64,000 nucleotides of DNA from an uncultured virus (IMG/VR IMGVR_UViG_3300035501_001058) (lineage: Duplodnaviria > Heunggongvirae > Uroviricota > Caudoviricetes), in IMG/VR virus record IMGVR_UViG_3300035501_001058. One strand, written 5' to 3'. Both the position numbers and the translations under genes were made by a program. Below the pieces are notes generated by a model. That model was given only the letters and a program-made list of their open reading frames with translations. It was not told where the DNA came from and searched no databases. This document shows positions 23,119 through 62,290 of the stretch, piece by piece. Position 1 is the stretch's first letter; the number at the start of each line of letters is the position of its first letter.

Positions 23119-23150
23119 GCCAGCAGAGCTTAAAATCTCTGTTGGTTTTT
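23119..23150 (+). terminator. Intrinsic terminator (loop CTTAAAAT)
   Basis: GCCAGCAGAG/CTCTGTTGGT stem with G-U pairs, then T run. Confidence 0.8.
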
Positions 23151-23171
23151 ACGATAAAAAATAAGAATAGT

Positions 23172-23200
23172 TTGGGAGTACTTTTTGTACTCCCAATTTT
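23172..23200. terminator. Second hairpin (terminator-like)
   Basis: Perfect TTGGGAGTAC/GTACTCCCAA inverted repeat, T5 loop. Confidence 0.65.
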
Positions 23201-23224
23201 ATTTATTAAAAAGGAGGCAAAAAA

Positions 23225-27905: not shown

Positions 27906-27922
27906 AAGAATCGCAGATAATA

Positions 27923-27957
27923 GGTGCTCAAAGTATAAAAGCTTTGAGCATTTTTTT
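27923..27957 (+). terminator. Intrinsic terminator with TATAAAAG loop
   Basis: TGCTCAAAG/CTTTGAGCA stem followed by T7. Confidence 0.85.
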
Positions 27958-27983
27958 AAACTTTTAAGAAAGTTGGTGAAAAA

Positions 27984-31988: not shown

Positions 31989-31992
31989 TAAC

Positions 31993-32024
31993 GGGGGTGC
32001 CTATAAAAGGGTGCCCTTGTTTTT
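31993..32024 (+). terminator. Terminator-like hairpin with TATAAAAG loop
   Basis: GGGGGTGCC/GGTGCCCTT stem (needs G-U pairs) then GTTTTT. Confidence 0.7.
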
Positions 32025-32042
32025 ACAGATAGGGGTGATTTA

Positions 32043-35843: not shown

Positions 35844-35863
35844 TATACAAATAGATGCGTAAA

Positions 35864-35897
35864 GGGGAGCTGTTGGTAAAACAACAGCTCCTTTTTT
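35864..35897 (+). terminator. Intrinsic terminator (loop GTAAAA)
   Basis: GGAGCTGTTG/CAACAGCTCC stem then T6. Confidence 0.85.
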
Positions 35898-36023
35898 AGG
35901 TTATAAGGAATACTTTAAAAATAGGGAATACTCGAGATAATTTTTTATATAGTCATACGGGGATATTTTTAGGGTAGGAAGTTTGACATTTTATGAAATG
36001 ATAATTTTATGTTAGGAGGAAAT

Positions 36024-46129: not shown

Positions 46130-46874
46130 TGCAGGAACTATATTCGCTATTAGTCCTGATTATCTAGATGTGCTAAATAAGGAATCTGCTAAATATGATT
46201 TTGCTCTGCAAGGATACGGTTCATTTCAAAAAGCTTGCAAATGTCTTATTAAAACAAATGTAGAGGATATACTTGGTTATGTTTTCTTAAGTTATGAACT
46301 CCCTAAAGATTTAACTTTCTTTAGGGAGTTTTTGGATAAGTGTAATCTGTGCGGCGGAGATAAAAAGTTTCTTATTGCAACCTTAAATCAGGCAAGGATA
46401 ACTCAATTAGATTATAGTAGTTACAAGAATTTAAAGTTTGGTATAGTAAAAATTAATGAGGTTGTTACAGATGTCGTAATTAATCGCGATATTTTTGGTT
46501 CAATTTTACTAGCTAATTTTGAGCCATATGTTCTTACAGAAAAGGTAGAGCAAAAGAGTATAAATGGTAACGTACCAATATTGACATATGAACCATTACT
46601 AAGTAAAGACGTTTTAGACTGTGTTGATAAAATACAACTTCATTCTTCGCTGGAAGAGACTATTAGATATGATGAAATTTTATATAGGTTTAAGCTAGCT
46701 AAGTCCCCTTTGGCCCTTTTAAGAGAATTTTATATAAAATCATTTTATCCAATTGAGCAGGATAAATCCAGTTTGGAGTGTATTTTAAATAATTGCACTC
46801 CAAAAGAGTATGGTATTTATAAAGCGTTGATAGAAATGGTTAGTTCTGAACATGTAGTACAAGGTGGTGAATAA
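46122..46874 (+). CDS. Hypothetical protein (possible degenerate receiver-like alpha/beta domain)
   Basis: AGGAG before ATG 46122; alternating beta/alpha pattern. Confidence 0.65.
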   Translation: MNNAGTIFAISPDYLDVLNKESAKYDFALQGYGSFQKACKCLIKTNVEDILGYVFLSYELPKDLTFFREFLDKCNLCGGDKKFLIATLNQARITQLDYSSYKNLKFGIVKINEVVTDVVINRDIFGSILLANFEPYVLTEKVEQKSINGNVPILTYEPLLSKDVLDCVDKIQLHSSLEETIRYDEILYRFKLAKSPLALLREFYIKSFYPIEQDKSSLECILNNCTPKEYGIYKALIEMVSSEHVVQGGE

Positions 46875-48486
46875 TATGATTTCATTTGATACTTTCAAAG
46901 TTGCTCCTTTAGAGAAGGAAATTTTTGATTCTATTTATTATGAACAGAATAGCTTAGGTGAAGCTAATTGCTTATTTGACTTAGAATTATACAAGGTTGT
47001 AGATCGTTTCACAATAGTAGACACATTAAAGAAGGAATACCCGTTACTTTGTTCTATTGAAACTGTAAATAGGGATAATACTTTGAGAGATACTGAAGAA
47101 AGATTTGGTGTGATTATAGATAAAATAAGTAATAGAGAGCTTAATGTGATATATCCAGTACTTTCGAATAATATAAATAAGAGTTCTTTAAGTATAAAAT
47201 TAAGTCAGTACAAATTAAATTGGCTTGAAGTAACCAGACTTAACTTTTTACAATTGCAAGGTACAGATATTTCTACTTTTTATAATGAAGATTTATTGTT
47301 CAAGCGAATAGTTGTTGAAGCAATAAATTTAAAGGCAACCGATTTACATTTTTCTGTTGAGCATACTGAAAACGGGGTAGAATACCCATTGTATTATCGT
47401 AGTGGCAGTCAGCTCTTTAAATTAAGTTTATTTGAGTTAGATAAAAAATTAAATAATGCACTAATTAGCAAATTCATTGAAAGAAAAACTACTGATATTT
47501 CACTTGATATTTCTGATTCAGCCGGTGTTACAACGAGCACTTCAGCTTTGTTTAAGACAAGAGCAATAGAACTTAGAGTTTCGGCTAATAAAGTAAATGA
47601 TGGAACAAGATGTGTTATACGAATTCAGGAAAAGAAAACTACAAGTTTACATGTGGATGAATTAGGGTTTGCAGCAAAGGTTACAGACGGAATAAAAGAG
47701 TTAGCTTGCAAAAGAAATGGTATTACTTTTATAACAGGTGCTATAAGAACAGGTAAAAATACCACAGCATTTGCAATTGCAAATGAAATACATAAAGACA
47801 ACGTTAGTCTAATAAGTTATGATTCACCTATAGAGGTTTTAATGCCTTTTCCACAGGTAGACTACAGAGAAAGCCCTGAGCGCTTGCTTAATTGCGTAAG
47901 ACTTGCGAAAAAACAAGATATCGATATTGCATTTTTGAATGAGATACCTTCAAAAGATGTAGCTTTTGCTGTTAAAGATCTTGTAAATAGTTCCATAGGT
48001 GTAGTGACTACATTACATTTAAATAGATTATGGGATTTACCATATAGATTATTTGAATACTATGGTGATTCTTACAAAGATGTTATAGCACAGATTAATG
48101 GTGTGGTAAATCAGAAAATGTTTAGTGTTCCATGCCCACATTGTTTGAAAACAATGAGAGCAAATGATGTAGAAAATAGTACTATTCGTAAGTTACTTGA
48201 AGCCAATAATGTTCAAACTGTTTATGTAAATGATGGCTGTGTTAATTGCTATAATATTTATACAGGTACGTATGGTACAGTTATTGGAAAAAATCAGCCT
48301 TATGCAGAATTTCTTATATTTGATGAAGAGATTCGTTCCAGCCTTTTACGGTTTGATAGTACATGGGAAATGGCAGAATACTTAAAGGGTCAGCTATTGA
48401 GCAGAAAGCAGAATCTAGAAGTGTTTATGATTGAAGCAATTAAGCAAGGAAGATTATCATATGAGGCTTTACAATACATAATTTAG
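46864..48486 (+). CDS. PilB/GspE-like secretion/pilus assembly ATPase (divergent)
   Basis: ATDLHF, ELRVS, CVIRI, ELGF, ITGAIRTGKNTT, DSPIE, NEI, TTLH, CPHC...GCVNC; start may be ATG 46876. Confidence 0.85.
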   Translation: MVNNMISFDTFKVAPLEKEIFDSIYYEQNSLGEANCLFDLELYKVVDRFTIVDTLKKEYPLLCSIETVNRDNTLRDTEERFGVIIDKISNRELNVIYPVLSNNINKSSLSIKLSQYKLNWLEVTRLNFLQLQGTDISTFYNEDLLFKRIVVEAINLKATDLHFSVEHTENGVEYPLYYRSGSQLFKLSLFELDKKLNNALISKFIERKTTDISLDISDSAGVTTSTSALFKTRAIELRVSANKVNDGTRCVIRIQEKKTTSLHVDELGFAAKVTDGIKELACKRNGITFITGAIRTGKNTTAFAIANEIHKDNVSLISYDSPIEVLMPFPQVDYRESPERLLNCVRLAKKQDIDIAFLNEIPSKDVAFAVKDLVNSSIGVVTTLHLNRLWDLPYRLFEYYGDSYKDVIAQINGVVNQKMFSVPCPHCLKTMRANDVENSTIRKLLEANNVQTVYVNDGCVNCYNIYTGTYGTVIGKNQPYAEFLIFDEEIRSSLLRFDSTWEMAEYLKGQLLSRKQNLEVFMIEAIKQGRLSYEALQYII

Positions 48487-49385: not shown

Positions 49386-50605
49386 TTGAAGCCATTATAG
49401 AGCTGGATAATAGTTTGCGTTTAGTAATTACTAAAGATTACGATGTAGTTCTTATAGATGAATTAAAAATAACTAGCAATACTTTAGATATGTTGTACAC
49501 AATACTAAATGAGTTAGCTGTTAATAAAGTTACTGTCATAATGCATGCTGTTTATGATAAGTTAATGTATAGTAATGCAATAAATGTTGACACCATCCAA
49601 ATCGGTGATGAAGTTTATTATGGTTTTTTCTCACGAAGTGATATAGATAGATTAAATGCAGTCTTTCGTGCTCTAAAAATCACTGATGTAACTTACTATA
49701 ATAAAATGGACTTGTATAAAACATTTATTGAAAAAAATCAGTGTATTGTTGATGTACATGGAAATTCTATAATTATTTTAGTAAAACAGGATAATCTATG
49801 TTATTTAGGATATTCAAAAACTTTAAATTTTGATCAAAGATTACTACAGATATGCAGTAAATATGGGGTTAAGGATATTGTAGATTTTTCTACATTTGTT
49901 GATTATGATTGTATTTGCAAATTTAACAATTTTGCGAAAGTGAATGTTTTAACAGGGTACACTACGTTATCTATTTTTGGTTTTTTCAGATATAGTAATA
50001 GATGTTTACCTATACAGTGTAATAATTTCTATGATGAAAGTTCAGCAAAAGAATGGTTTGTTAATAATGAACCTACAGATAATAAACATGGAGAAAATAA
50101 AATAGAATCTTCTAAAGAAAAAAGACCCAAAAAAGAGGATTCTGTGAAGCAAGAACAACATATAAAAGTAAAACAGCATCATGATTTAGTAACGTTTATA
50201 TGTACTTCACTCGGTATTCTGATAGTACTTGTAGTCTTGCTGGCTGTTATAGCTTGCAATTTACTAGGGTCAAACAATGAGTCTCTGGAGAATGATTTAT
50301 TAGTTTTGAATGATAAAAATTCTTGTTACGTACATAAATTAGATTATGTAATGAGAGATTCTGAGATAAGCTATACTGAAATATATGATCTTTTGCAAAA
50401 TGGGTTACCAGATGGCATTTTGGTATATTCATGTGAGATAACCGATAGTATTAATTTAACTATGCTCGTTCCAGATGATGTTGAAAGTTCAACATTAGGT
50501 TCAGCACTTCCGGAAGGTCTAAGTATGCAAAGTGCAACTGAAATAGGATTAGTAACACAAGGTGATGTTGTATATGTAAAATATCTAATTTCATGTAGTA
50601 AATAG
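49382..50605 (+). CDS. PilM/PilN (GspL)-like architecture protein
   Basis: Cytoplasmic alpha/beta domain, charged linker, one TM, coiled coil and small external domain. Confidence 0.45.
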   Translation: MIEAIIELDNSLRLVITKDYDVVLIDELKITSNTLDMLYTILNELAVNKVTVIMHAVYDKLMYSNAINVDTIQIGDEVYYGFFSRSDIDRLNAVFRALKITDVTYYNKMDLYKTFIEKNQCIVDVHGNSIIILVKQDNLCYLGYSKTLNFDQRLLQICSKYGVKDIVDFSTFVDYDCICKFNNFAKVNVLTGYTTLSIFGFFRYSNRCLPIQCNNFYDESSAKEWFVNNEPTDNKHGENKIESSKEKRPKKEDSVKQEQHIKVKQHHDLVTFICTSLGILIVLVVLLAVIACNLLGSNNESLENDLLVLNDKNSCYVHKLDYVMRDSEISYTEIYDLLQNGLPDGILVYSCEITDSINLTMLVPDDVESSTLGSALPEGLSMQSATEIGLVTQGDVVYVKYLISCSK

Positions 50606-50608
50606 TTG

Positions 50609-50641
50609 GTGTGGTGTAACGTAACTGTACACCACATTTTT
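50609..50641 (+). terminator. Intrinsic terminator
   Basis: TGTGGTGTA/TACACCACA stem then T5. Confidence 0.75.
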
Positions 50642-50667
50642 AGATTAAAGTAAAGGAGGTTTTATAC

Positions 50668-51999
50668 ATGCGTATAGGAGGTTTTTATGGTTTTACTGTA
50701 CCTATGCTAATACCTGTTTATGACGAGCAGATGCAAAGAATACTTAAAACTTTTAACGGTAAACTAAACACATATGCAACATTAGATCTTAGGAAGGAGT
50801 TATGGCACTTCAGGCGTGCACTAACAATGTTACCAAGAGAATTATCTTCTGAAGATAATTCATTAAATGAGTTTTTAGACAGTGCTACTGTAATAGCTGG
50901 TAAAATTGTAGGAAAATATATGGAGCAACCTGACTCAGATGAGATAGAGCATCAAATTATGCAGGCATTATGTGATGCTTGTGGTAAAAGATTATATGAA
51001 CAAATGATACGAGGAAAGTTCTATGATGTAAGAGATTTAGAGGATTCATCATCATTTATGCCAAAGTTATTTGAGCTAGTGAAAACAGCTATGATTGGTA
51101 AGACTTTTTCCTTAACTAATGTAAATGTTTTATACAGGGCTTTTTTGAAGCTGTTGAGTGCAGATAATAGTGTAGGTAATTATGATGTAGTTAAAAGAAA
51201 CATTAGAATGTTTTGTAATCTAAGAGAGTATACACCAAATCAAATATTTATGGATGGGGAACTTATTACTTTAACAGAGCAGGAAATAAAGGTTATTGAT
51301 TATTATAGAAGTAATATTAATGTCATTGATAAAATGGCAAAATGTGTAGATATTTCAGGTTATGCAGATGAAAAGATTTTTGGAGTATCATTTATTGATT
51401 TTCTTAATAGAAAACCTACAAGTCTGTATTATATGGTTTTACAGCAATTTGATCATTTAAAAAACTCTGATATCAAGTTGTTCCCTAATGTTCTTGATAA
51501 AGTTAAGACTGAGTTTGGGACATGTAAGAATATGATAGATTCTTATTTAGCATCAAATCAGGCAGAAAATAGTATGGTTAGTAGAGATGAATTGATAAAT
51601 GTCTACTCTGATTTAGATGAAGATCTGGTTACATTTTTGTTAGAGTCATATGATATTGCTAATGTTAATGAAATAAGTACTATCGATTTGGATAATCTAG
51701 TAGTGCTATATAATGCGGCAAGATTTCTATCATTGGATAACTTAAACAGTATTTGGGAAACCGAATTATCTGAGGAAGATTTTAAAGTAATGGCATCTAA
51801 ATTCGATAAATTACATTTGGGTGGAATGACATTATTGACGAACAAGTTATTTAAAGAGTCTTTAAATGAAATTATTTTTGTAAGTAATTTAAAGGTTTCA
51901 CGTTCTGAAGAGTATGTTAGTGAATTAAAGCAAATTTGCAAAGATGTAGATGCACTGCTAAGTACATTTAAGCCAATTGGAGGTGAACTCTATGTATGA
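50668..51999 (+). CDS. Hypothetical mainly helical protein
   Basis: 443 aa, AAGGAGG RBS. Confidence 0.8.
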   Translation: MRIGGFYGFTVPMLIPVYDEQMQRILKTFNGKLNTYATLDLRKELWHFRRALTMLPRELSSEDNSLNEFLDSATVIAGKIVGKYMEQPDSDEIEHQIMQALCDACGKRLYEQMIRGKFYDVRDLEDSSSFMPKLFELVKTAMIGKTFSLTNVNVLYRAFLKLLSADNSVGNYDVVKRNIRMFCNLREYTPNQIFMDGELITLTEQEIKVIDYYRSNINVIDKMAKCVDISGYADEKIFGVSFIDFLNRKPTSLYYMVLQQFDHLKNSDIKLFPNVLDKVKTEFGTCKNMIDSYLASNQAENSMVSRDELINVYSDLDEDLVTFLLESYDIANVNEISTIDLDNLVVLYNAARFLSLDNLNSIWETELSEEDFKVMASKFDKLHLGGMTLLTNKLFKESLNEIIFVSNLKVSRSEEYVSELKQICKDVDALLSTFKPIGGELYV

Positions 52000-53020
52000 T
52001 TTACATATTCTTGATGTATCTGCCTTATTGCATTTTGGTATGAATTCAGAGTTTTATAAAGATAGAGTTAGTTATACATATAATGTTGGTGGAATACATA
52101 AAGTTATGCGACACATTATGACTGCTTTTTTTAATAATGATGAAGTTGTACTAGCTTTTGATTCTAGAAACAATTTCAGAAAACAACTTATGCCTAGCTA
52201 TAAGGCAGGAAGAGTATCAAATAAGTATGTGATTTCACAAAATGAATTGTTACTTGAGGAATTACCACGAATTGGTTTTCATTGTTATCAATTCGATGGT
52301 TATGAAGGTGATGACATTATTAATTGGGCTGTAAATGACTTACACTCTTCTGGATATGGCAAAATACTTATTATTGGTAACGATAATGACTTAGCCCATA
52401 ATGTCAGGAATGATGTTGTATTTCACAGTATTAATGATAATGTGAATAGCGTTACAGAAAATAATTTTGCATTTGCACTTAGCCGAAATGAATCCGTACC
52501 ATTTAATTTCATCAGTGTAAAAAAAGTGTTAACTGGCTGTAAATCAGATAAAGTTGCACCATTTATATCGGAAAAGGGTATTACTGGTACAGAATTATTT
52601 GATGCATATTTAAAGGCTTTAGAGAGTGCTAATGTGCCTTTTGTATATAATAATACAACTAGTTCTAAGTTATTTATGATGTTTATGAAAGCTTGCTCTG
52701 ATTTGACTGACAAAGATTTACAGGAGCTAGAATTAAGATGTAAAATTATTTTTCCTGCTCAGAAACCATCAGATGTTTCCATAGTAGCTGACAGATATAG
52801 AAAGTTAGATAGAGATTTATTAATAGATTTTTTGTCTTTTGTAAATGATTATGATTCATTAAAAAGGATTCCTGCATCTAAGCATGCTTTACGAGAAAAT
52901 CAGAAAAAGGAGCTATCTGATAGAAATAAGGCACTTACTTCTGGAACATTTGCAGTAGATCGTAATTTCCCAGTAAATGAAAGCTATGAGGATTCTGTAT
53001 TGACATTAAAGGAGTTTTGA
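51992..53020 (+). CDS. 5'-3' exonuclease/flap endonuclease (PolI N-domain / T4 RNase H-like)
   Basis: ILD, AFDS, FRKQLMPSYKAGR, EGDDII, DNDL, GCKSD. Confidence 0.9.
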   Translation: MYDLHILDVSALLHFGMNSEFYKDRVSYTYNVGGIHKVMRHIMTAFFNNDEVVLAFDSRNNFRKQLMPSYKAGRVSNKYVISQNELLLEELPRIGFHCYQFDGYEGDDIINWAVNDLHSSGYGKILIIGNDNDLAHNVRNDVVFHSINDNVNSVTENNFAFALSRNESVPFNFISVKKVLTGCKSDKVAPFISEKGITGTELFDAYLKALESANVPFVYNNTTSSKLFMMFMKACSDLTDKDLQELELRCKIIFPAQKPSDVSIVADRYRKLDRDLLIDFLSFVNDYDSLKRIPASKHALRENQKKELSDRNKALTSGTFAVDRNFPVNESYEDSVLTLKEF

Positions 53021-53021
53021 T

Positions 53022-53618
53022 ATGGAGCAAAAGAGATTAATTGTTACATATGAACGTGTTGATCATTTACTTGCTATAGCAAGTGCTAAATTGTCTGAAC
53101 AGCTTGATATTAATGGAGAGGAATATTTATATGTTGTACCTTTTTCTGATTATATTAAGAGTCAGATACATTTAAATGTTACTAATAGGCTTTACAATAG
53201 AGATAGTAGATTGTACAAAGCTGCTTATGATTATCTAATTGGAGAAAGCACAAATGCTGAAAGTTTAAATCCTATTCTTGAATTTTTTTATTCAGATATG
53301 AAGGATTTTTTATTGCATAATAAGTACAATATTAGGCTAGAATTAGATATTAATGTTGAGGTACCAGATACAAAAAAGGTATCATATAATTATGGAGATA
53401 TTAGAACTGAACTATTATGCACTGCAAATGAAAATTTCAGTGATTTTAATGATGCTAGATTATGGTTAAAGAAACATCATTATGCTGAAAATGTTATGCA
53501 GTACGTAAATAGTAATACAGAGTTATTTAATAAAATTGATTCTTATACAGCTATCGCAATTTTATCTGATAACTTAGGTAAGAAAAATATTAAATGGGAG
53601 GTTCCAAATGAGAATTGA
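53022..53618 (+). CDS. Hypothetical protein
   Basis: 198 aa, AAGGAG RBS. Confidence 0.75.
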   Translation: MEQKRLIVTYERVDHLLAIASAKLSEQLDINGEEYLYVVPFSDYIKSQIHLNVTNRLYNRDSRLYKAAYDYLIGESTNAESLNPILEFFYSDMKDFLLHNKYNIRLELDINVEVPDTKKVSYNYGDIRTELLCTANENFSDFNDARLWLKKHHYAENVMQYVNSNTELFNKIDSYTAIAILSDNLGKKNIKWEVPNEN

Positions 53619-54207
53619 AATTGAAAAAGGTTATGGAAAGATAGTTGCTAATTTTTTGAGACAACTGCTTATAACAAAAGTTCCATGCTGGCGACCAATT
53701 GCTTTTGCTGTAGGTAGTGATACCACAATAGTATCAGTAGGAGATTCAGTATTAGAGGATTCCACTGAAATAGTAAGTAACTTAGTAAAATATCATTATG
53801 AAATTGATTCAAATGAAGATTTCTATGTATTGAAACTAAATGTAAAAGATTTGAATATAGATGATTTAAATAGAGATGCTGTTCATGTACTTGATAGTGA
53901 TGGACAGCATATTTTTCATTCTATGACAGCAGAATTGCCAGTAGTTATATATTTCGCAAAAGCAAAAGGTTCTTCTTTATTAAATCAGAATCAAACAAGG
54001 TTAAGACAGAATGGTATTGATAATGATAGGGTTGTTGTTTTTAATGCAAGATTTACAAACTTAGATGCTGTGCAAGTTACAGTGGAAGAATCGTCAGATA
54101 TAAATGATATTATTACTTTAGAGATAGAGTCACACTGCGAAATTAATGAAGAAGAGCTACTGCATATTTGTTGTAGTGATATTGTTGATAAGTTTTCTAA
54201 ATTATAA
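53608..54207 (+). CDS. RNA polymerase alpha subunit N-terminal-domain homolog (no CTD)
   Basis: EKGYGKIVANFLRQLL ~ ERGYGxTLGNxLRRxLL; VLEDSTEIVSNL ~ VxEDVxEIILNL; FTNLDAVQVTVE ~ FxPVxxVxYxVE; DIITLEIES. Confidence 0.8.
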   Translation: MRIEIEKGYGKIVANFLRQLLITKVPCWRPIAFAVGSDTTIVSVGDSVLEDSTEIVSNLVKYHYEIDSNEDFYVLKLNVKDLNIDDLNRDAVHVLDSDGQHIFHSMTAELPVVIYFAKAKGSSLLNQNQTRLRQNGIDNDRVVVFNARFTNLDAVQVTVEESSDINDIITLEIESHCEINEEELLHICCSDIVDKFSKL

Positions 54208-54235
54208 TGGGAAAATTTGAGTTTCACCCTTAGAT

Positions 54236-54251
54236 TTTTCAACCTTGAAAA
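54236..54251. promoter_or_regulatory. Short palindrome, possible operator
   Basis: TTTTCAA-CC-TTGAAAA in intergenic region. Confidence 0.3.
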
Positions 54252-54300
54252 CTTTGCAATCATTTTATTTAAAAGTAAGTAATGAAAGGGAGGCATTTGC

Positions 54301-55992
54301 ATGATAACACTGAATTATCTAAAAAGTATTGGGTGTATTTCATCTGATTATTTTGAAGTGGATTATCATAGTAATAATTCTGTTAGCATTACAGAATTAT
54401 TGTCATGGTCACAAAGTAAACAGGAACAATTTACAGGTGTTGTTTTATGTGACAATTGTCTCTGGGCAGCAACGTTAAAGCGATTACCCTTAGCAAAGGC
54501 TAATAAGATATACTCAAGTGATGGAGAGAGCTTATGTTGTTGGGATTCTGAAAAACGCACTGTCTTCATTAAAAGTCTAATCGATAAAAAATTGGTAACG
54601 GTTAGACAATATATTTTGCCAAAAATAAAAAAAGAAAAGGAGATTAGAAAAATGGCAGACATAAACATTGATGGATTGGATTTAAACGAAATGACCAATT
54701 TTAGTGATGAATCAGTAGTAGCTGGACCAGCTACAGGTAAAGGCTCAAGAGAGGAGTCTGAAAGATCAAGAGATAACAGAAGATATATTGAAAAGATGCA
54801 GAATGCAGATATCAGTGTTCAGGAGAATACTGCTATTATAACTGAGAATCAGTCAAAGGGTAGATCACTTGGTTTTATAACAAGAACAGATAAGGCTGTT
54901 CGTATGTCACTTGTTAAGGTTGCAAAGAAGGGTCCAGATGGACGAGTTATCCTTAATGAGGAGGGAAGCAAAAATCCCGATGTTGTTAAGAAGTATGAAG
55001 ACTACAAGGCAGGAAAGGAAAACTCAACGATGCCAGCTAAGAAGTATCTTGAGGTGGAATATGATTTCAAGTTTAAGGAAGCTAAGCCAGGTAAGATAGT
55101 TGCTATGATTATTAAGATACCTGCATCTACAGCAGATATTAACTATGCTAATTTCCTGAATTCTGAAGTTGCACTTAGTTCCACTTCATCAACAGAGACT
55201 GTTGTTCGTATTCTCCCTATTGAGCAGGCATATGATTATCTTATTACTGCTTTTGATGGTAAGATTAAGGAAGATGAAGCTCTTCTTGGAGCTAGAGCAG
55301 CTTGGTTACAGATCAAGGGTGTAATAGCTAAGCCAACAGGAAAGAACGCTGCAGTTGAAGGAGATAATGTAAGATTGTCTCTTATTCTTGCTGCTAAGTC
55401 AGAGACTAGAAAGACTCTGCTTACAGAAGGCAATTATATTCCTATGAAGGTTTATAAGGCACTCTCTCAGAATGATATCAAGAGTGCTGAAGATGCTGAG
55501 AAGCTTAACAACAACGTAAAGCAGTTATTCAAGGATAGCGATAAGGCTGCAAATCTGACAGAAGCAGCAAAGAGTATCTTTGATGCAGATAACTTAACAG
55601 TTAAATATTTTGCTCAGGCTAATTCAGAGCGTCAGACAATTGAAGCTCCTGATCGTTTTGATGGTAATGGAAAGGTTGCAAATGTTAAGATTGCACTTAG
55701 AGATTCAAAGGTATCAAAGACATCAGGTAAGAATACATATCCATACATCTATGAAGATGATTTCTCAGCAATTGTGAAGTCAAATCGTTCTGTTGCTGCA
55801 ATAATGGAAGCTGCAAATGTTACTGCTGAAGATCTTGCAGCAGAGTTCAAGAAACTTAGCAAGACAACTTCTAGAACCAGTGGTAGCAAGAACATTACAA
55901 GCCTTGATATTGACACTCTTAAGAAGTCAGTTAAGGCTAAGGGTGCTAAGAGCACTAAGGATTTGGCAGCTCTGCTTGCAGGTATTGCATAA
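54301..55992 (+). CDS. Hypothetical protein; main start probably ATG 54652 (446 aa, Lys/Ala-rich, likely abundant)
   Basis: RBS before both 54301 (GGGAGG) and 54652 (AAGGAG); AAG/GCT-rich codon usage after 54652. Confidence 0.8.
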   Translation: MITLNYLKSIGCISSDYFEVDYHSNNSVSITELLSWSQSKQEQFTGVVLCDNCLWAATLKRLPLAKANKIYSSDGESLCCWDSEKRTVFIKSLIDKKLVTVRQYILPKIKKEKEIRKMADINIDGLDLNEMTNFSDESVVAGPATGKGSREESERSRDNRRYIEKMQNADISVQENTAIITENQSKGRSLGFITRTDKAVRMSLVKVAKKGPDGRVILNEEGSKNPDVVKKYEDYKAGKENSTMPAKKYLEVEYDFKFKEAKPGKIVAMIIKIPASTADINYANFLNSEVALSSTSSTETVVRILPIEQAYDYLITAFDGKIKEDEALLGARAAWLQIKGVIAKPTGKNAAVEGDNVRLSLILAAKSETRKTLLTEGNYIPMKVYKALSQNDIKSAEDAEKLNNNVKQLFKDSDKAANLTEAAKSIFDADNLTVKYFAQANSERQTIEAPDRFDGNGKVANVKIALRDSKVSKTSGKNTYPYIYEDDFSAIVKSNRSVAAIMEAANVTAEDLAAEFKKLSKTTSRTSGSKNITSLDIDTLKKSVKAKGAKSTKDLAALLAGIA

Positions 55993-56038
55993 ATCAAAAA
56001 TAAATTAATGTAAGTACAACTCTAGTACGCTAGTGCGG

Positions 56039-56070
56039 TAGGTGGTGCATAAAAACACCACCTATTGTTT
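56039..56070 (+). terminator. Terminator hairpin (loop CATAAAAA)
   Basis: TAGGTGGTG/CACCACCTA stem then TTGTTT. Confidence 0.8.
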
Positions 56071-56090
56071 AAAATTAAGATGAATTTACA

Positions 56091-56116
56091 AGGGTGCATT
56101 TTATGCACCCTATTTT
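56091..56116. terminator. Second hairpin (terminator-like)
   Basis: AGGGTGCAT/ATGCACCCT inverted repeat then ATTTT. Confidence 0.65.
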
Positions 56117-56137
56117 ATATTTAGGGAGGTACATAAA

Positions 56138-57340
56138 ATGCGGCTATATAATTTTGATGAGGTTGTAGGTAATAGCAATGTTGTTGCTATTATTCGTCAA
56201 TCTTTAGCTAATGACTCTTTTCCCCAAATAGCTATCTTTAGTGGAGTTTACGGCACAGGTAAAAGTACATGCGCTGAAATTGTCAGCTTAGCCTTAACAT
56301 GTAAAAATAGTAAAAGTGGTTTACCATGTTTAGAGTGTGAAAATTGTAAATCAACAATAAAAGCTTTACAAACAACAGCAGAGAATACACGTGTTATAAA
56401 AATAAATGTAGCACACAAGAACACAAAAGAAGATTTAGATAAAATGATACGAGATATTTTTGTTCTTAAATCTTCTAGTAGTAGAGTCGTATACATAATA
56501 GAGGAAGCACACTCATTAAGTAAAGCGCAGCAAACAGCATTCTTGGAAGAATTAGATAAAATACAAAAAGGAGTGTATGTAATTTTCTGCACAACAAAGA
56601 TAACTGATTTACTCCCAGAATTACGTAGTAGAGCAATAAATTTTGCTTTTACTCGAATAAATGATAATGAAGCTGCAATACTTTTATCAAACTTGGAAAG
56701 GAAATATTCTTTTTATTTAGATAATGCTTCAAAACAGATAATAATTAATTATGCAAAGGGAATACCTCGACAATTAACCAATCTTTATGAATTTGTAAAA
56801 AATGGTGGCTATCAATCTGAGACATTAGCGTCTTTTTTGGGTGTTATAAATGAGAATGAATATATTACATTATTTGAAATAATGTCATCTAGGGATATGT
56901 TCATGTATACTAATTCTCTTGATCAATTATTAAAATCATACAGTATCGATGTTTTTCTTGAACAGATGAAAGAATTTATGCTAAAGGTCGTTTTTCTCAT
57001 TGAAGGTAGTATTAAATCAGGTTTCTCTAATGATGATATACAGAGAATCAGAAGAGTTTTTAACGGAATAGATGTTTTAAAGGTGGCTAATGTTATCAGC
57101 AATATAAATTATAATGCAACTGAAGCAGACTTTAAGTTTTCTATGTTAAAAATTAGACAGATTATGTGTAATAAGACAATGAATGATATTGTAAAAGATA
57201 GTGCCACTGAAGCTGTTGCACAGGTACGACAAGCAAAAACACTTGATAAAGCAATAACAGATACGAAGAGAGAAGAAAGCAATAAAAATTCTTTTTCACC
57301 ACTTAATCTTCAGTTTTTGAATCAATTCGGAGGTGATTGA
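56138..57340 (+). CDS. dnaX: DNA polymerase III gamma/tau-like clamp-loader ATPase
   Basis: FDEVVG, GVYGTGKST, C..PCLECENC zinc module, IIEEAH, LRSR, GIPR. Confidence 0.9.
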   Translation: MRLYNFDEVVGNSNVVAIIRQSLANDSFPQIAIFSGVYGTGKSTCAEIVSLALTCKNSKSGLPCLECENCKSTIKALQTTAENTRVIKINVAHKNTKEDLDKMIRDIFVLKSSSSRVVYIIEEAHSLSKAQQTAFLEELDKIQKGVYVIFCTTKITDLLPELRSRAINFAFTRINDNEAAILLSNLERKYSFYLDNASKQIIINYAKGIPRQLTNLYEFVKNGGYQSETLASFLGVINENEYITLFEIMSSRDMFMYTNSLDQLLKSYSIDVFLEQMKEFMLKVVFLIEGSIKSGFSNDDIQRIRRVFNGIDVLKVANVISNINYNATEADFKFSMLKIRQIMCNKTMNDIVKDSATEAVAQVRQAKTLDKAITDTKREESNKNSFSPLNLQFLNQFGGD

Positions 57341-57814: not shown

Positions 57815-60800
57815 TTGGTTAAAAGGTTTATAACAATTGTTGTTGCCGGAACACTTATACTTTCATCAGTTAGTACTCTAGCAGCTTCGGATAAAATACC
57901 AGATGAAGCAAAAAATACTGTTAACTATGTTAATAATCAATATAACAATATAGATTATAAATACGAAGTTACAGATGAAAGTAAGATAGATGGTATTCCT
58001 TCAGCAAATAATAAAACATTAGTAAAAAATGATACTGGTAGTAAAAATCTAGAAGATTTGGATACAGTTAAGTCTTGGTTAATTAGTAATGATATAATTT
58101 CAAGACCATACAAATTAAAAGATGGCTCTGTCACAATAAATGAATATGAAGATACTGATTATTGTCCACAAACATTACTATGGACTATGTTATACAAAGC
58201 TAAAAATGGTGTTATAGAAAGTAGACCTTTAGCTAATAAAACTAAACGTACCGGAGAATACACCATAGATAACAGTACAACAGAAGTCACAACGGAAGCA
58301 ACAACAGAAGTTACGATAGAGGCAACAACTGAAAGTACTACTGAAGGTGCTACTGAATCAGCAATACAAAATACTACTGAAAGTAAATCAGAAACAATCA
58401 GTATCGAACCAGTTGATGCAACTGTAGTACAAAAAAGTAAATCAAAGAAAAAAACAACAGAGGCAACAACAGAAGTAGTTTCATACACTGCTAAAGATTA
58501 TGATGTATTAGTTTCATCTAATGTATATGAATTATACTTGAAAGAGTTAATGGATCAAGGAATGATTGATAAGAGTACATTTAACTCTAAAAATGGTAAA
58601 AAATTCTTATCTGATTACAAAAAACTCAGTAATAAAAAATCTGATGATGCTAATGTTGCATGGGATAATAGACTGAAATATGGGACATTAAAGACAAAAA
58701 ATGTCTTAGGATATAGTACTAGTTATAATACTGATTTTAATGTAACAGAAAAGAAGCCAAACTATTTTGTTAATGAAAAGATGTACACTATTGGTGCTTT
58801 ACAGATAATAGCAAAATATGTACGTAGTACAGAAAAAGATATGTCTAATCTTGAAGCATCTATTGTAACCTATAAGTATGGTATAAATTATAAGTTTACT
58901 GTAGATGATGAAGCTGCACAAAATGATATTGAATTCTTAATAGCTAAAGGTATTTTGGACTTTGAGAATCCAGAAGAGTTTACTAATTTATATGGAGAGT
59001 TCACATACGAAAGTGCATTAAAGATAATTTACAGAGTTGCTAATGAGGATGCTAGACTGAATTTTAGTGAAGTTACTCTTACTGATGGAGAATCATTTTG
59101 GCTTGATCAAGGTTACTATGAAGATAATATGTCGATCGTTGAATCAACAAGCCTTCCTCAGGTAAAAACTATAACAGACGATTACTGGAATAGTCTTCTT
59201 GAAAATGATCCAGATGAAGTAGAAAATAGTGATGATGAAGATTCTACTGAATCAAACATAGGTAATAATTTTATTGATGATATACTTGGTCTAAACTTTA
59301 GTAAAGTATCTGTAATGGCTGCAAGTGAGATGCCTACATTCACTGTGGTAAAGATGTTTGATTTATCTTATGACTATACATACAAAGGAATAAATATTAA
59401 GGAACTTAGTGATTCAAATAGCAAACCTGAGGAGTTTGTCAGTTACGAGGAAAGCTCTTTCAATGGTTTAAGTGCCAATGGTAAAACGACTTTAGCAAAA
59501 GTTACATTTAAAGTTGAAGCTAAAAGCTATGACACTGCTGTATTATATGTAGATAATAATATTGCAATAGATGGTTATTTGACATCATCTGATATGTTGG
59601 CGTATACAACAATTAACGAAAATGGTGAAGAAATAACATTAGTACCTGCCACAACTTTACAAAATAGTTTGTCCAATATTTCTATTATTGAAGATAAAGT
59701 TTTGATGAATAATGTAACAGGTGCACAGGCTATTATCTTACCAGAGCAAGGATACGCATTAGTTGGAAACAGAGTTGTGGTGTCAGATACATTAATGATG
59801 ACTGATACATCAGATGAAGTATACTATAACTTAGACGTAATTTGTACTCTGCTTGGAAATACATACTTAAGTAAGCTAACAAATAAACAGTTATATGTTT
59901 GCTCAAGTATTAATAATGAAGTAACAGCAACTATAAAGAGTTCATCAGGAAGCACTCTAGGGAAAGCTTATGTAGTTGATTTTCTTACATCTACAAGTAA
60001 AAAGAAGACTACAACAAAGAAATGTTTTAATGTAGATAATGTTAATTATGGTGTTAATGTTTTGACTAGAAAGTTTAATATTACAGTTAACGGTAATAGT
60101 GAAGATGTTTATTTTATTGTCAATTGGGATTACTGCGTTCCAGACGAAACGGCATTGAGGGATATGATTGATAATAATGTTTTTGGAACATCAACATTAA
60201 CACTAAATGATGTAAATGAGGCAATTTATACTAAGCCATCTGATAAAAGTCTTGCTCTTTGGTGGGATACAAATTTAAGTATTTCTAACTCTTTAGCAAA
60301 TTTCATGTATGGGACAACCAATGTTGAATACGTAAAATCAGGATATCTGACACCGTCTTTAACAATCCTTAGAGATAGTACTGTTCCAGATTCAGCTATC
60401 AATTCTATTTTTACAGCAAATGGCTTTAAACTTGATGATACTGGCTTAAAATACAGTGGTTCTACAACTAATTGGTGGGAAACTTTTTATGGTGCGTCTT
60501 TAATAGAAGATAGCTTTGTAAAAGCTTTAGCATTGAGTAATAGAACTTGTAATGTTTATAATAGTACAGAGCTTAATGATGGATTTGCATACGGAAACTC
60601 ATATTATGTTACAAAAGCTGGTGTAATTTATGAAGATTTTGATAGTGCTAAATCTATTTCTTATGATGTAGCAAAGAAGCAGATTTTGATAAGTTCTAGG
60701 AAAACCGGAGAAGAAGTTGAATCTGTAGCAGATAATACAGTTTTTAGTTATGGTGGAAGTGAATGGATTTATGTCGGAGCTAAAACTATGACTAATAGTA

Positions 60801-62290
60801 AAGGTGAATCTGTTTTGTGTTATAAGATACAACCTAATTTTGTTATAAGTAAATACAATAATGTTACTATCACTAAAACAAAATATGGTGTATTACCTAG
60901 GTTTACAGCTATAACATCAAAGCAATCTGATACAGCTATATATAATGATAATGTTAATGAACTAAGCGCGTTATACAGTACATACTTTCCTACAGTTTCA
61001 CCTATAGTGAAATATAAGGATTCATCTGAAATGTATGGTGTTTCATCTTTTCGTATAAAGAATTTTTATAAGAGTTTATACGATAAAGGAAGTTATTATG
61101 TTAACGGAACAAATATCTCTACTGACGGAAAGACAAAAGTTTCTTTAACTTCTGGTAAAAGTTATAAGACGTACTCAAGTAATAATATACAGGCTATTCC
61201 GTACTTCTATGTACCAGCTTCTAATTTTTATTTCACAAAGGTTAATGATCAATTAATGATGCAGGAAGGTTCCGCAGTAATAGCTTTAACTATGAATAAT
61301 GTGTTCACATCAGGTATCTCTAAGAATGTAATAGACAATATACTTTTTAAAGAGACTAAAACAATAGCAGTTAATTCAATGTTAAATGGACAACAGTTAT
61401 TGATAGATGATGTACTTTATACAAAAACCACAGACAATTCAGGTAACGCTATTTTTATCTCTGAACCAATTACTGATACAAAATTTGCAAATGCATTAAA
61501 AAATGCGGAACAAGATGATGAATTAGGAATTATTAAATCGCACCTATTTGCAGCACAACAAATAACTTGCGAAGGAGTTTCTTACTATCTAAGTTCCTTT
61601 GTAATAGGTGGTACGGTGGGAGATATCTCTAACGCTGAAGATGGTGGCCAAACACTTTATAAGCATGGAGGAAATAAATATATCTATGTGGATAGTACAA
61701 ATCAAACAGTAGATGCTAGTAGCAGTACTGCAAAATCTGTATGTATTGCAATAACATTAGCAGATGGTTTATATGCTAGACCTACTAATGAAAAACAGAA
61801 TACATACATACTGCTGAAAGCTAGTAATGTTACACCTGATAGTAGCATTGATTATATTCCATTCTTTAATGAGAACCTTACTTTCTCTGAAAATGTGGAT
61901 TCTTATGTGAGTGTTACTAATTCTAAATTTAATGCATCTTCTCTGTTCCTTAATGCAAAAACAGGATATAAGAAGATGATGAAAGAGGCTTTTCAGGGTG
62001 ATGTAATAACTGTTATCTGGATGATTATTTTCTACTTCTGTGTTTACATGACAGTGGTTGTTTGGATAATGTACATTATTCTCGGAAAAGGATACGGTTT
62101 AGCTTTCTTCAGAGCAGCAACTATTCCGTCAGGGAAAAATGGATATCTGAAACACGGTTTCGATTTAATAAAAATTTTTACATTTGGTACTTATAATATT
62201 GATTCAATGCCAACACTAGCGCGAACTATGATAACAAGTTTTATCACTTTTTTCATTTCATACGCTATTGTATTTTGGCAGCCTTTTTAG
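57815..62290 (+). CDS. Very large secreted/membrane-anchored surface protein
   Basis: Signal peptide ending STLA-A; S/T-rich; two C-terminal hydrophobic segments. Confidence 0.85.
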   Translation: MVKRFITIVVAGTLILSSVSTLAASDKIPDEAKNTVNYVNNQYNNIDYKYEVTDESKIDGIPSANNKTLVKNDTGSKNLEDLDTVKSWLISNDIISRPYKLKDGSVTINEYEDTDYCPQTLLWTMLYKAKNGVIESRPLANKTKRTGEYTIDNSTTEVTTEATTEVTIEATTESTTEGATESAIQNTTESKSETISIEPVDATVVQKSKSKKKTTEATTEVVSYTAKDYDVLVSSNVYELYLKELMDQGMIDKSTFNSKNGKKFLSDYKKLSNKKSDDANVAWDNRLKYGTLKTKNVLGYSTSYNTDFNVTEKKPNYFVNEKMYTIGALQIIAKYVRSTEKDMSNLEASIVTYKYGINYKFTVDDEAAQNDIEFLIAKGILDFENPEEFTNLYGEFTYESALKIIYRVANEDARLNFSEVTLTDGESFWLDQGYYEDNMSIVESTSLPQVKTITDDYWNSLLENDPDEVENSDDEDSTESNIGNNFIDDILGLNFSKVSVMAASEMPTFTVVKMFDLSYDYTYKGINIKELSDSNSKPEEFVSYEESSFNGLSANGKTTLAKVTFKVEAKSYDTAVLYVDNNIAIDGYLTSSDMLAYTTINENGEEITLVPATTLQNSLSNISIIEDKVLMNNVTGAQAIILPEQGYALVGNRVVVSDTLMMTDTSDEVYYNLDVICTLLGNTYLSKLTNKQLYVCSSINNEVTATIKSSSGSTLGKAYVVDFLTSTSKKKTTTKKCFNVDNVNYGVNVLTRKFNITVNGNSEDVYFIVNWDYCVPDETALRDMIDNNVFGTSTLTLNDVNEAIYTKPSDKSLALWWDTNLSISNSLANFMYGTTNVEYVKSGYLTPSLTILRDSTVPDSAINSIFTANGFKLDDTGLKYSGSTTNWWETFYGASLIEDSFVKALALSNRTCNVYNSTELNDGFAYGNSYYVTKAGVIYEDFDSAKSISYDVAKKQILISSRKTGEEVESVADNTVFSYGGSEWIYVGAKTMTNSKGESVLCYKIQPNFVISKYNNVTITKTKYGVLPRFTAITSKQSDTAIYNDNVNELSALYSTYFPTVSPIVKYKDSSEMYGVSSFRIKNFYKSLYDKGSYYVNGTNISTDGKTKVSLTSGKSYKTYSSNNIQAIPYFYVPASNFYFTKVNDQLMMQEGSAVIALTMNNVFTSGISKNVIDNILFKETKTIAVNSMLNGQQLLIDDVLYTKTTDNSGNAIFISEPITDTKFANALKNAEQDDELGIIKSHLFAAQQITCEGVSYYLSSFVIGGTVGDISNAEDGGQTLYKHGGNKYIYVDSTNQTVDASSSTAKSVCIAITLADGLYARPTNEKQNTYILLKASNVTPDSSIDYIPFFNENLTFSENVDSYVSVTNSKFNASSLFLNAKTGYKKMMKEAFQGDVITVIWMIIFYFCVYMTVVVWIMYIILGKGYGLAFFRAATIPSGKNGYLKHGFDLIKIFTFGTYNIDSMPTLARTMITSFITFFISYAIVFWQPF
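58275..58480 (+). repeat. Coding low-complexity TTE repeats
   Basis: STTEVTTEATTEVTIEATTESTTEGATE ... TTEATTEV; imperfect 12-bp units. Confidence 0.8.

Follow-up and report, generated by a model that had tools for sequence, protein, structure and literature searches.

Gene organization around the short alpha gene

The window, i.e. the whole 64-kb stretch of DNA that was analyzed, contains a gene for a short homolog of the alpha subunit of RNA polymerase (RNAP), embedded in a string of genes of the same orientation (Table 1). On our own reading, the hairpin ahead of the gene at 50668 delimits the unit with alpha on its upstream side, and this gene is likely the first of the unit since it directly follows the terminator-like structure. 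Within the unit, the overlap between the genes for the 198-aa protein and alpha makes translational coupling likely, and the same overlapping pair is present in a related element (see below). The surroundings of alpha comprise a 5'-3' exonuclease, two proteins without known family and a clamp loader, instead of the usual rpsK-rpsD-rpoA-rplQ genes; the initial annotation, which placed the gene outside an rpsK-rpoA-rplQ context, was correct in this respect.

Table 1. Features of the alpha-containing gene string (positions in the window)
Feature	Position	Strand	Remarks
Intergenic hairpin, then T run, then ribosome-binding site of the gene at 50668	50606-50667	+	Author's reading of the sequence; site absent from the list of the terminator scan
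443-aa protein, no family found	50668-51999	+	First gene past the terminator-like hairpin; ortholog in the G001 element (24% identity)
5'-3' exonuclease (FEN-like)	51977-53020	+	Pfam 5_3_exonuc_N, E = 6.7e-17; PHROG exonuclease; in one string with alpha
198-aa conserved protein	53022-53618	+	11-nt overlap with the alpha gene; no PDB or Pfam match
Ribosome-binding site GGGAGG	53596-53601	+	6 nt 5' of the alpha ATG, within the 3' end of 53022-53618; read directly
Alpha gene, N-terminal domain (NTD) only	53608-54207	+	199 aa, ATG start; no C-terminal domain (CTD); N-terminus shorter by about 25 residues relative to cellular alpha
563-aa protein, no family found	54301-55992	+	Downstream of alpha; locally higher GC
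Two terminator-like hairpins with T runs	55993-56137	+	Close the unit; the scan lists 56091-56111, the rest is read from the sequence

The proteins encoded at 53022 and 50668 had been suggested as a second alpha or a sigma-like factor. This suggestion found no support: compared with the alpha family and with 10 host proteins of the sigma-70 family, both gave hhalign probabilities of at most 0.2%, and neither found a match in Pfam or PDB or a usable one in Atlas. Two larger proteins of the window (1041 and 850 aa) are likewise devoid of PDB matches. Relatives of the 198-aa protein form a family of 46 clusters (181-218 aa), on contigs of the same kind as those with short alphas. Pfam revealed no consistent family across the 46 members, and the best PDB match of the family profile has an E-value of 0.068. 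The 198-aa protein may be regarded as a candidate accessory subunit of RNAP.

In four gut RNA libraries, the gene for the 563-aa protein is well covered by contigs and is the sole such part of the region 50600-56200; the alpha gene has no cover, an absence that is uninformative either way. One freshwater DNA run contained 9% of the sampled words.

A divergent alpha NTD without CTD

Sequence comparisons and structure prediction together confirm the product of 53608-54207 as a true, very divergent homolog of the bacterial RNAP alpha NTD, as initially annotated. With the window alpha as query, phmmer retrieved 42 distinct PDB sequences, all of them RNAP alpha subunits; in the best match (8x6f_A, E = 1.2e-6), residues 5-189 align with chain residues 28-214. 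The AF2 model (mean pLDDT 95.5, pTM 0.88) resembles the same proteins, and its best 50 Foldseek matches in the PDB are all bacterial alpha NTDs, with E-values down to 1.3e-13, query TM-scores (TMq) of 0.72-0.82 and an identity to solved bacterial alphas of 17-22%.

Of the two Pfam profiles named in the initial annotation, only RNA_pol_L was found. It matches residues 6-196 over profile positions 4-74 of 74, in the split topology typical of alpha, with an E-value of 2.9e-4 and a score of 21 bits, which is below the gathering cut-off of 24 bits. RNA_pol_A_bac gave no match at E <= 1 in the Pfam scan. The absence of the CTD was borne out as well: the protein stops at residue 199, where the NTD ends, so that linker and CTD are missing, and no RNA_pol_A_CTD was detected by Pfam, including relaxed thresholds, in the scanned ORFs of the window.

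A family of short alphas

With the single sequence of the window alpha, tblastn against phage and plasmid records, a word-index homolog search and a scan of IMG/VR all yielded nothing. A scan of IMG/VR with the alpha alignment returned a single locus (L001), which was judged a chance match, as the similarity is confined to a short motif within an ORF of 651 aa. The family to which the window alpha belongs contains proteins of ~200 aa in 127 representative clusters. Almost all family hits (124/127) are of at most 235 aa, and the remaining three (320-350 aa) are cellular alphas with E-values of at least 7e-5. A profile built from 80 members matched only alpha subunits in the PDB (54/54), covering profile positions 5-200, with 4noi_A as best match (4.2e-16), and RNA_pol_L was found at E <= 0.01 in 19 of the 80 members.

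The family is well separated from its cellular counterparts. In a phylogenetic tree, one branch with a length of 2.67 and an SH-aLRT support of 100 parts 60 short alphas from 12 cellular alpha NTDs. Short alphas are devoid of a CTD throughout the family, lack the region of the first beta strand known from cellular alpha and keep the N-x-x-R helix motif. Their most conserved positions (N15, R18, P30 and E50) lie in a segment that aligns with the helix and strand conserved at the N-terminus of alpha. Contigs bearing family members reach 523 kb. Among 801 Bacillota species genomes, only one contains a short alpha, and this genome (G001) is the seed of the search itself.

A related element with a fused beta-beta' subunit

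G001 is a cultured Lachnospiraceae isolate. One of its scaffolds, of 103 kb, matches the window in gene order over a large part of its length (G001:C12:650-71000), each gene having its counterpart, with protein identities of 22-55%. Scaffold C12 carries the only short alpha of the isolate, together with a GreA-like protein (GreA_GreB_N). A normal host set is present besides, with rpoA on C52, rpoB and rpoC on C11, and rpoZ; RNA_pol_A_CTD occurs solely in the host rpoA. Another scaffold, C37, which resembles the window in its GC skew and in the arrangement of its genes on one strand, contains an open frame of 2751 aa encoding a fused beta-beta' subunit with an intact catalytic motif and the Pfam domains Rpb2_6, Rpb2_45, Rpb2_7 and Rpb1_1 to Rpb1_5. 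In the G001 element, short alpha and beta-beta' are thus found on different scaffolds.

Fused beta-beta' subunits of this type form ~100 clusters of 2400-2900 aa, on contigs of up to 310 kb. The NADFDGD motif is kept in 97 of the 101 proteins examined, and identity with cellular rpoB/rpoC stretches is at most 33%. One of the proteins, P0193 (2891 aa), has an intact NADFDGD motif and shares its longest-contig size of 191,278 bp with P0129, which is the window alpha letter for letter. This equality of contig sizes suggests that the window's own element carries a fused, motif-intact beta-beta'. Equal longest contigs also characterize two further alpha/beta-beta' pairs (P0002/P0195, 93,217 bp; P0340/P0205, 132,584 bp), and the values 191,278, 70,196, 91,844 and 107,681 bp are shared between the family of the 198-aa protein and that of beta-beta'. 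A scan of metagenome contigs with P0193 found nothing.

A search for rpoB, rpoC and sigma genes had been proposed at the outset. Within the window, rpoB and rpoC are absent, as judged from tblastn with P0193 and from a motif scan without any DFDGD-type motif, and the fused beta-beta' was encountered in the syntenic relative. Pfam detected neither sigma nor omega nor a separate alpha-CTD in the window (relaxed scans included) or in scaffolds C12 and C37 of G001, so that the holoenzyme is incomplete as known at present.

Nature of the element

Pfam domains in the window include ATPases of the T2SSE/VirB11 and FtsK types, an M23 peptidase, DUF5688 and DUF2958, which point to a transfer apparatus. 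Capsid, portal and terminase were absent, according to PHROGs, from the 49 window ORFs scanned, and also from 41 previously unassigned ORFs of the G001 element (C12 70-103 kb and C37).

A cellular origin must be considered, namely that the window is part of the small genome of a reduced symbiont or epibiont, with a CTD-less alpha as its sole alpha and a fused rpoB-rpoC. The contig sizes of up to 523 kb would agree with such a genome, as would the Hsp70, class A PBP, ligase and two tRNAs seen in related contigs, and fused rpoBC genes do exist in some bacteria. The gene content speaks another language. No domain of ribosomal proteins or aminoacyl-tRNA synthetases was found by Pfam in the ORFs of the 64-kb window and of ~78 kb of G001 (C12 70-103 kb and C37, except for a few C37 ORFs and two C12 ORFs spanning the locus boundaries). 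With ARAGORN, the window proved free of tRNA genes, and C12 and C37 together yielded only two. Most proteins are without any family, and those that can be assigned include the putative transfer functions. Moreover, G001 holds the element beside a full host set of rpoA, rpoB, rpoC and rpoZ, and short alphas are restricted to this one isolate among the 801 Bacillota species genomes. A cellular origin is therefore very improbable.

Role of the short alpha

Collectively, these data indicate that the element probably encodes an alpha2-beta-beta' core polymerase of its own, for which the window alpha serves as assembly platform. As in cellular RNAP, two 199-aa alphas would dimerize through the RNA_pol_L-type domain, and the dimer would provide the platform for folding and assembly of the single-chain beta-beta'. 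The GreA-like protein seen in the related element, a predicted cleavage factor, may serve the same enzyme. As alpha has no CTD, the polymerase should be unable to read UP elements or to answer activators that act through the alpha-CTD. For the same reason, promoter choice must have another source, which might be a factor not yet recognized or possibly a host sigma. We infer dimerization of alpha, its binding to beta-beta' and autonomy from the host RNAP.

The location of alpha counts against this role, as its gene lies among replication genes (5'-3' exonuclease and clamp loader) and not beside beta-beta'. Other points against it are the absence of beta-beta' from the window, the failure to detect sigma, omega or a separate alpha-CTD in the ORFs covered, and the missing first-strand region of the family. 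It could be imagined that the alpha-NTD fold was exapted as a dimeric scaffold outside transcription, for example in the surrounding replication or repair module. The position of the gene, in a string with the exonuclease, next to the clamp loader and away from beta-beta', would fit this idea, and so would the loss of the N-terminal strand and of the CTD in the family. Yet motif-intact beta-beta' and a GreA-like factor co-occur in the same element family, and the top conserved positions of short alphas fall in the segment that aligns with the conserved N-terminal helix/strand of alpha. To our knowledge, there is no case of an alpha NTD exapted as a non-transcription scaffold, and we consider such a change of function highly improbable.

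The initial annotation had offered a choice between a component of an element-encoded bacterial-type RNAP and a subunit that enters the host RNAP. The former is favored by the beta-beta' and GreA-like protein of the relative and by the pair P0129/P0193, whereas entry into the host enzyme found no support. In its explicit form, the latter idea supposes that the CTD-less alpha joins the core RNAP of the host, where it would pair with host alpha or take its place. The element would then benefit from a host enzyme that no longer responds to UP elements and to activators dependent on the CTD. A genuine alpha NTD without CTD would suit this purpose. Against the family profile, certain host alphas of Bacillota reach E-values of 1e-16 to 1e-18, which implies related fold surfaces, and the lack of a detectable element sigma makes an interplay with host transcription factors plausible. 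However, the element family has its own beta-beta', and the window alpha is remote from bacterial alphas, both in identity to the solved ones and in branch length. For the alpha of the G001 host itself, the E-value against the family profile is no better than 1.2e-8. In addition, 59 of 80 family members have a Gln at a candidate beta-contact position, directly after an Arg kept in 79 of 80; we take this position to be that of E. coli R45, required for beta binding. A Gln at this site agrees with co-evolution between the interface and the beta-beta' of the element itself. Take-over of the host enzyme thus appears highly improbable, and the preferred reading remains a core polymerase of the element's own.

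It is tempting to go further, though only tentatively and with the odds rather against it, and to propose that the window represents a widespread, undescribed family of giant extrachromosomal elements from gut Bacillota, with genes on one strand and contigs of ~100 to >500 kb, and with autonomous bacterial-type transcription. Their machinery would unite a dimer of the minimal alpha with beta-beta' as a single chain and with a GreA-like factor, and the conserved 198-aa protein coupled to alpha might be a novel subunit of the polymerase, with a share in what the alpha-CTD or sigma does for the choice of promoter or template. No RNAP with an alpha subunit has so far been known outside cells and organelles, and this machine would be the first.

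Implications

The most likely interpretation, a stripped-down alpha that is part of an element's own bacterial-type RNAP, has not been reported for phages or plasmids. In the literature consulted (full texts without supplements, with subscription journals outside its range), no element-borne alpha accompanied by a fused beta-beta' is described. If the interpretation is true, the short alpha is a natural minimal version of the subunit, from which the tasks of the NTD by itself can be defined, and large elements in gut Clostridia are able to detach their transcription from that of the host, with a possible escape from host-directed regulation and from inhibitors of the host enzyme. The system would be tractable, because a relative resides in a cultured Lachnospiraceae isolate. 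A practical consequence concerns the many metagenomic contigs with RNAP genes, which could be mis-binned as cellular.

Comparison with known systems

The closest structural relative of the short alpha is the NTD of bacterial RpoA, with which it shares the two-domain fold, the split RNA_pol_L topology, the N-x-x-R helix motif and, presumably, the role of a dimeric platform for beta and beta'. It differs from RpoA by the lack of linker and CTD, the later start, the low identity and the score below the Pfam cut-off, and also by its encoding on a mobile element, away from the rpsK-rpoA-rplQ operon, and its position in a separate clade. Chromosomal rpoB-rpoC fusions, known in Helicobacter and Wolbachia, likewise unite beta and beta' in one polypeptide. 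There, the fused protein belongs to the only RNAP of the cell and works with a full-length alpha, whereas the fusion in the element is a second, very divergent copy beside a normal host set.

Subunits of the Rpb3/RpoD type from archaea, eukaryotes and giant eukaryotic viruses are also alpha homologs devoid of an alpha-CTD, and in giant viruses they are products of the viral genome. A search of BFVD with the alpha model gave six weak matches at E <= 1e-3 (TMq 0.47-0.57), five of them named pithovirus RPB3 and one unnamed, with no bacteriophage protein at this threshold. The best 50 PDB matches of the window alpha, in contrast, are exclusively bacterial alphas.

Regarding the kind of replicon, Inocles of oral Streptococcus offer a parallel. 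These giant extrachromosomal elements of hundreds of kb possess their own genes for DNA repair and replication and a bifunctional transglycosylase (PMC12340149). Compared by description only, they resemble the present elements as large Bacillota elements with replication/repair genes, and an ORF with Transgly and Transpeptidase domains on C37 of G001 is comparable with their transglycosylase. The terms 'RNA polymerase', 'rpoA' and 'rpoB' do not appear in the main text of the Inocle report (PMC12340149).

Finally, the multisubunit RNAPs of jumbo phages (phiKZ, and the virion and non-virion enzymes of AR9/PBS2), the ones known to date from mobile replicons of bacteria, also belong to non-cellular replicons with their own two-barrel beta/beta'-type polymerase and without recognizable sigma. 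In these enzymes, beta and beta' are split over 4-5 polypeptides, and alpha and omega are absent (Sokolova et al. 2020, PMC7598289; 2026 review, PMC13282480). Since alpha is the universal platform, it was asked how the assembly of beta and beta' can proceed in its absence (PMC7598289). The present elements differ by a beta-beta' in one fused chain, by the presence of alpha and by the absence of capsid, portal and terminase from the scanned ORFs. Their polymerase would follow the opposite design, with a minimal alpha kept for its assembly function only and with beta and beta' fused.

A divergent alpha subunit without a C-terminal domain

The 199-aa protein encoded beside a set of replication genes is a real homologue of the N-terminal domain (NTD) of the RNA polymerase (RNAP) alpha subunit. 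This is taken as settled because phmmer, the family profile, the AlphaFold2 model and Foldseek agree. By phmmer against all PDB chains, the 42 distinct sequences matched are without exception RNAP alpha subunits (best 8x6f_A, E 1.2e-6, residues 5–189 versus 28–214), and a profile from 80 relatives retrieves 54 PDB sequences, likewise all alphas (top 4noi_A, 4.2e-16). The model computed from the 80-relative alignment is of high quality (mean pLDDT 95.5, pTM 0.88), and its top 50 Foldseek matches in the PDB are all alpha NTD chains, with E-values down to 1.3e-13, TMq of 0.72–0.82 and identities of 17–22%. By Pfam alone the case is marginal. The sole match, to RNA_pol_L (residues 6–196 versus profile 4–74), is interrupted in a pattern typical of alpha and reaches 21 bits (E 2.9e-4), where the cut-off is 24 bits. 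Of the two profiles named for a check in the initial annotation, RNA_pol_L thus responds below threshold, and the insert-domain model RNA_pol_A_bac finds no match in the Pfam scan. The protein is classed within the alpha NTD superfamily, as a divergent member lying below the Pfam thresholds.

The element alpha starts ∼25 residues later than cellular alphas and has no C-terminal domain (CTD). Its gene overlaps that of a 198-aa protein by 11 nt. Instead of ribosomal protein genes, its neighbours are those for a clamp loader, a 5'-3' exonuclease and two unknown proteins. Likeness to the RpoA NTD, absence of the CTD and a place outside the usual rpsK-rpoA-rplQ context, all proposed from the sequence at the outset, are borne out.

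A family of short alphas

When 1.84 billion representative proteins were searched exhaustively with HMMER, 127 relatives passed E ≤ 1e-3; of these, 50 also passed 1e-10 and 4 passed 1e-30. A length of ∼200 aa is the format throughout the family: all except three are short (124 of ≤235 aa), and the nine below 185 aa are probably fragments. The three long proteins (320, 326 and 350 aa) belong to the ordinary alphas and score close to the E-value limit. Positions N15, R18, P30, E50, R117, G121, N128 and L132 are nearly invariant. In a quick maximum-likelihood tree, one branch (SH-aLRT 100, length 2.67) splits 60 full-length short members, picked by rank out of the 127, from 12 cellular alpha NTDs (nine host ORFs from Bacillota genomes and three matches of the HMMER search).

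No family member turns up in the phage or plasmid record collections searched. Structural matches of the model in BFVD are weak (six at E ≤ 1e-3, TMq 0.47–0.57); all are Rpb3-type subunits from giant viruses of eukaryotes, none a bacteriophage protein. The exact window alpha (representative P0129, letter-for-letter identical) occurs on four contigs, the longest of 191,278 bp, and relatives lie on contigs of up to 523 kb. Among 801 Bacillota species genomes, a single one encodes a short alpha, namely that of the seed isolate itself, the Lachnospiraceae isolate G001; the eight other matches are full-length host alphas (314–327 aa).

A fused beta-beta' subunit in the element lineage

A genome scan with a relative (P0145) gives one locus, on a 103-kb scaffold (C12) of this cultured isolate. 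The window is collinear with G001:C12:650-71000 gene for gene over its whole length (22–55% identity; blastp, all window ORFs), including the overlapping 198-aa/alpha gene pair. In the 5.1-Mb assembly, alpha matches number two, the element's on C12 (1.6e-60) and host rpoA on C52 (1.2e-8, 324-aa frame). RNA_pol_Rpb2_6 and RNA_pol_Rpb1_2 are found in the host genes on C11 (1325- and 1341-aa frames) and in a 2751-aa frame on the 45-kb scaffold C37. The latter is a fused beta-beta', since beta and beta' domains stand in order in one frame (Rpb2_45, Rpb2_6, Rpb2_7, Rpb1_1 to Rpb1_5). A normal host RNAP gene set is carried alongside the element's alpha and beta-beta'. Like C12 and the window, C37 has its genes laid out on one strand and a strong GC skew. 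It carries a DUF5688 gene resembling the window's, a class A PBP, a ligase-like protein and two tRNAs. Farther along C12 lie a DnaB-type helicase, a DnaG zinc-finger protein, an Hsp70 and a SNF2 helicase.

On C37, the second gene downstream of the beta-beta' gene is an HNH endonuclease ORF. The related element further encodes a GmrSD-like nuclease, an ABC1 kinase-like protein and a HEPN/nucleotidyltransferase pair. A GreA-like gene lies on C12 as well; in the window's element, the corresponding region falls past the window's end.

The search for rpoB, rpoC and sigma genes suggested in the initial annotation has a divided outcome: the related element has the fused gene, and the window itself has none (its six frames hold no DFDGD-type motif, and P0193, a 2891-aa fused beta-beta', has no tblastn match there). 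In the G001 search, none of the 37 Sigma70_r2 matches falls on C12 or C37, the omega model matches C21 only and the alpha-CTD model matches host rpoA only.

With the isolate's fused protein as query, 134 proteins are found at E ≤ 1e-10; among the 120 listed, roughly 100 are fused forms of about 2400–2900 aa that carry Pfam domains of both subunits, and their contigs reach 310 kb. NADFDGD is kept in 97 of the 101 fused proteins examined (P0146–P0246). P0193, labelled beta/beta' subunit by its source, has the Pfam order of the isolate's protein. Its longest contig has 191,278 bp, the figure also recorded for the window alpha and the window 198-aa protein (P0266). Such links between families consist of exactly equal longest-contig figures, not shared sequence, with 20 of the 127 alpha representatives looked up. 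They also join alphas P0002 and P0340 to beta-beta' P0195 and P0205 (93,217 and 132,584), alpha P0012 to the 198-aa relative P0276 (29,914), and 198-aa relatives P0294, P0296 and P0297 to beta-beta' P0180, P0160 and P0162 (70,196, 91,844 and 107,681). P0193 has no match in the JGI metagenome collection and no close relative in plasmid or phage records, where every match is <60% identical, none covers 80% of the query and the best are ordinary rpoB/rpoC (about 27–33%). After Rpb1_5, P0193 continues C-terminally for about 350 aa, a stretch with only weak SpaA/fn3-like matches.

Neighbours of the alpha gene

The products of the genes at 53022 and 50668 had been put forward for a check as a second alpha or a sigma-like factor, which the comparisons do not support. 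In hhalign, the alpha family compared with the 198-aa protein and its 46-member family, or with the 443-aa pair, gives probabilities of 0.2%; ten host sigma-70-family proteins against both neighbours give ≤0.2%, and neither has a match in Pfam, PDB or Atlas. The 198-aa protein would be the best candidate for an extra polymerase subunit, given the overlap of its gene with the alpha gene in the window and in the isolate's element and the occurrence of its family on the same contigs.

Nature of the element

The window (64 kb) has a low GC content (0.30–0.36) and positive GC skew throughout, and 49 of its 51 ORFs of ≥120 aa lie on the + strand; the majority are without any match. Both family A polymerase-like genes are kept in the isolate's element (44–47% identity). 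Replication and repair functions further include an RNase T-type exonuclease, a Toprim primase-like protein, SbcC/SbcD-like proteins, a UvrD helicase, a RecJ-like DHH protein, a 5'-3' exonuclease and a clamp loader. DUF5688/DUF2958 proteins and very large surface or membrane proteins are also encoded. The VirB11-type and FtsK/SpoIIIE ATPases, M23 peptidase and 1491-aa protein together look like a Gram-positive DNA-transfer apparatus, beside which no relaxase or VirB4 family is detected. The window ORFs scanned yield no capsid, portal or terminase family, and the window has no tRNA genes. Tentatively, this gene content is taken as that of a large element that is plasmid-like and possibly conjugative. 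A reduced cellular genome is unlikely, given that no translation genes were found in roughly 140 kb whose ORFs were scanned, the coexisting host RNAP set and the restriction of short alphas to the seed isolate among the Bacillota genomes.

Features of the window and of the related element in isolate G001
Feature	Location	Strand	Remarks
Family A DNA polymerase, 1405 aa	817-5034		3'-5' exonuclease domain
M23 peptidase	15074-15844
FtsK/SpoIIIE-type ATPase	25782-27905
Second Pol A-like protein, 591 aa	27984-29759		DNA_pol_A match weak, E 7e-5
T2SSE/VirB11-type ATPase	46864-48486
443-aa protein	50668-51999
198-aa protein	53022-53618
Ribosome-binding site GGGAGG	6 nt upstream of alpha ATG	+	inside end of 198-aa gene
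Alpha, 199 aa	53608-54207	+	ATG start
1491-aa protein	57815-62290		signal peptide, C-terminal multi-pass membrane region
Gaps with hairpin and T run	15845-15908, 23095-23224, 27906-27983, 31989-32042, 35844-36008, 50606-50667, 55993-56137
Fused beta-beta', 2751 aa	L011:3452-11707 (G001:C37)	minus	Pfam
tRNA-Met(CAT)	L012:8743-8818 (G001:C37)
tRNA-Pro(TGG)	L012:12531-12606 (G001:C37)
GreA_GreB_N protein, 154 aa	L017:8014-8478 (G001:C12:88014-88478)		E 1.1e-10

In most larger intergenic gaps of the window, a GC-rich hairpin precedes a T run. In several, the ribosome-binding site of the next gene lies within about 20–30 nt after the hairpin, leaving too little room for a sigma-70-type promoter. 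The hairpins may act as terminators or attenuators, influence RNA stability or belong to unusual promoters. Over 54288-56036, contigs identical to the window, from four animal-gut metatranscriptome runs (four studies), cover essentially only the 563-aa gene at 54301-55992, and two stop at 54288, 13 nt ahead of its ATG. This gene (GC 0.358, above its surroundings) matches no known family; it may yield the element's most abundant transcript and encode a structural or nucleoid protein.

A probable element-specific polymerase

The initial annotation left two readings, an element-encoded bacterial-type RNAP or a subunit that enters host RNAP. The first is supported by the fused beta-beta' with intact motif and the GreA-like factor in the element lineage, and alpha is quite probably part of such an enzyme. 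Entry into host RNAP is disfavoured: the lineage has its own beta-beta', a long branch separates short from cellular alphas, and the isolate's host alpha matches the family profile weakly. A non-transcriptional exaptation of the alpha fold is suggested by a single point, the place of the gene among replication genes.

In the proposed element-specific core enzyme, two alpha copies would dimerize and provide a platform for the fused beta-beta'. As alpha has no CTD, this polymerase would make no use of UP elements or CTD-acting activators. One family position corresponds to E. coli R45, important for beta binding. Of 80 members, 59 have Gln there, and the Arg just before it is kept in 79 (register from the phmmer PDB alignment). 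This pattern fits an interface co-evolved with the element's own beta-beta' and not meant for host beta.

Comparison with known systems

Multisubunit RNAPs of jumbo phages are described as split beta/beta' pieces without alpha and omega (PMC7598289; PMC13282480, a 2026 review). In passages of the jumbo-phage survey of Iyer et al., alpha is named as a host target only, and 'RNA polymerase' appears nowhere in the main text of the paper on Inocles, giant Streptococcus elements. Full-text literature searches, outside which most subscription journals lie, gave no description of a mobile element with alpha and fused beta-beta', though an earlier one may exist. The system is filed as an element-encoded multisubunit RNAP, a known kind, in an alpha plus fused beta-beta' form for which no description was found. 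As far as these texts go, the jumbo-phage enzymes have split beta/beta' and no alpha, whereas the lineage studied here combines a fused beta-beta' with an alpha subunit.
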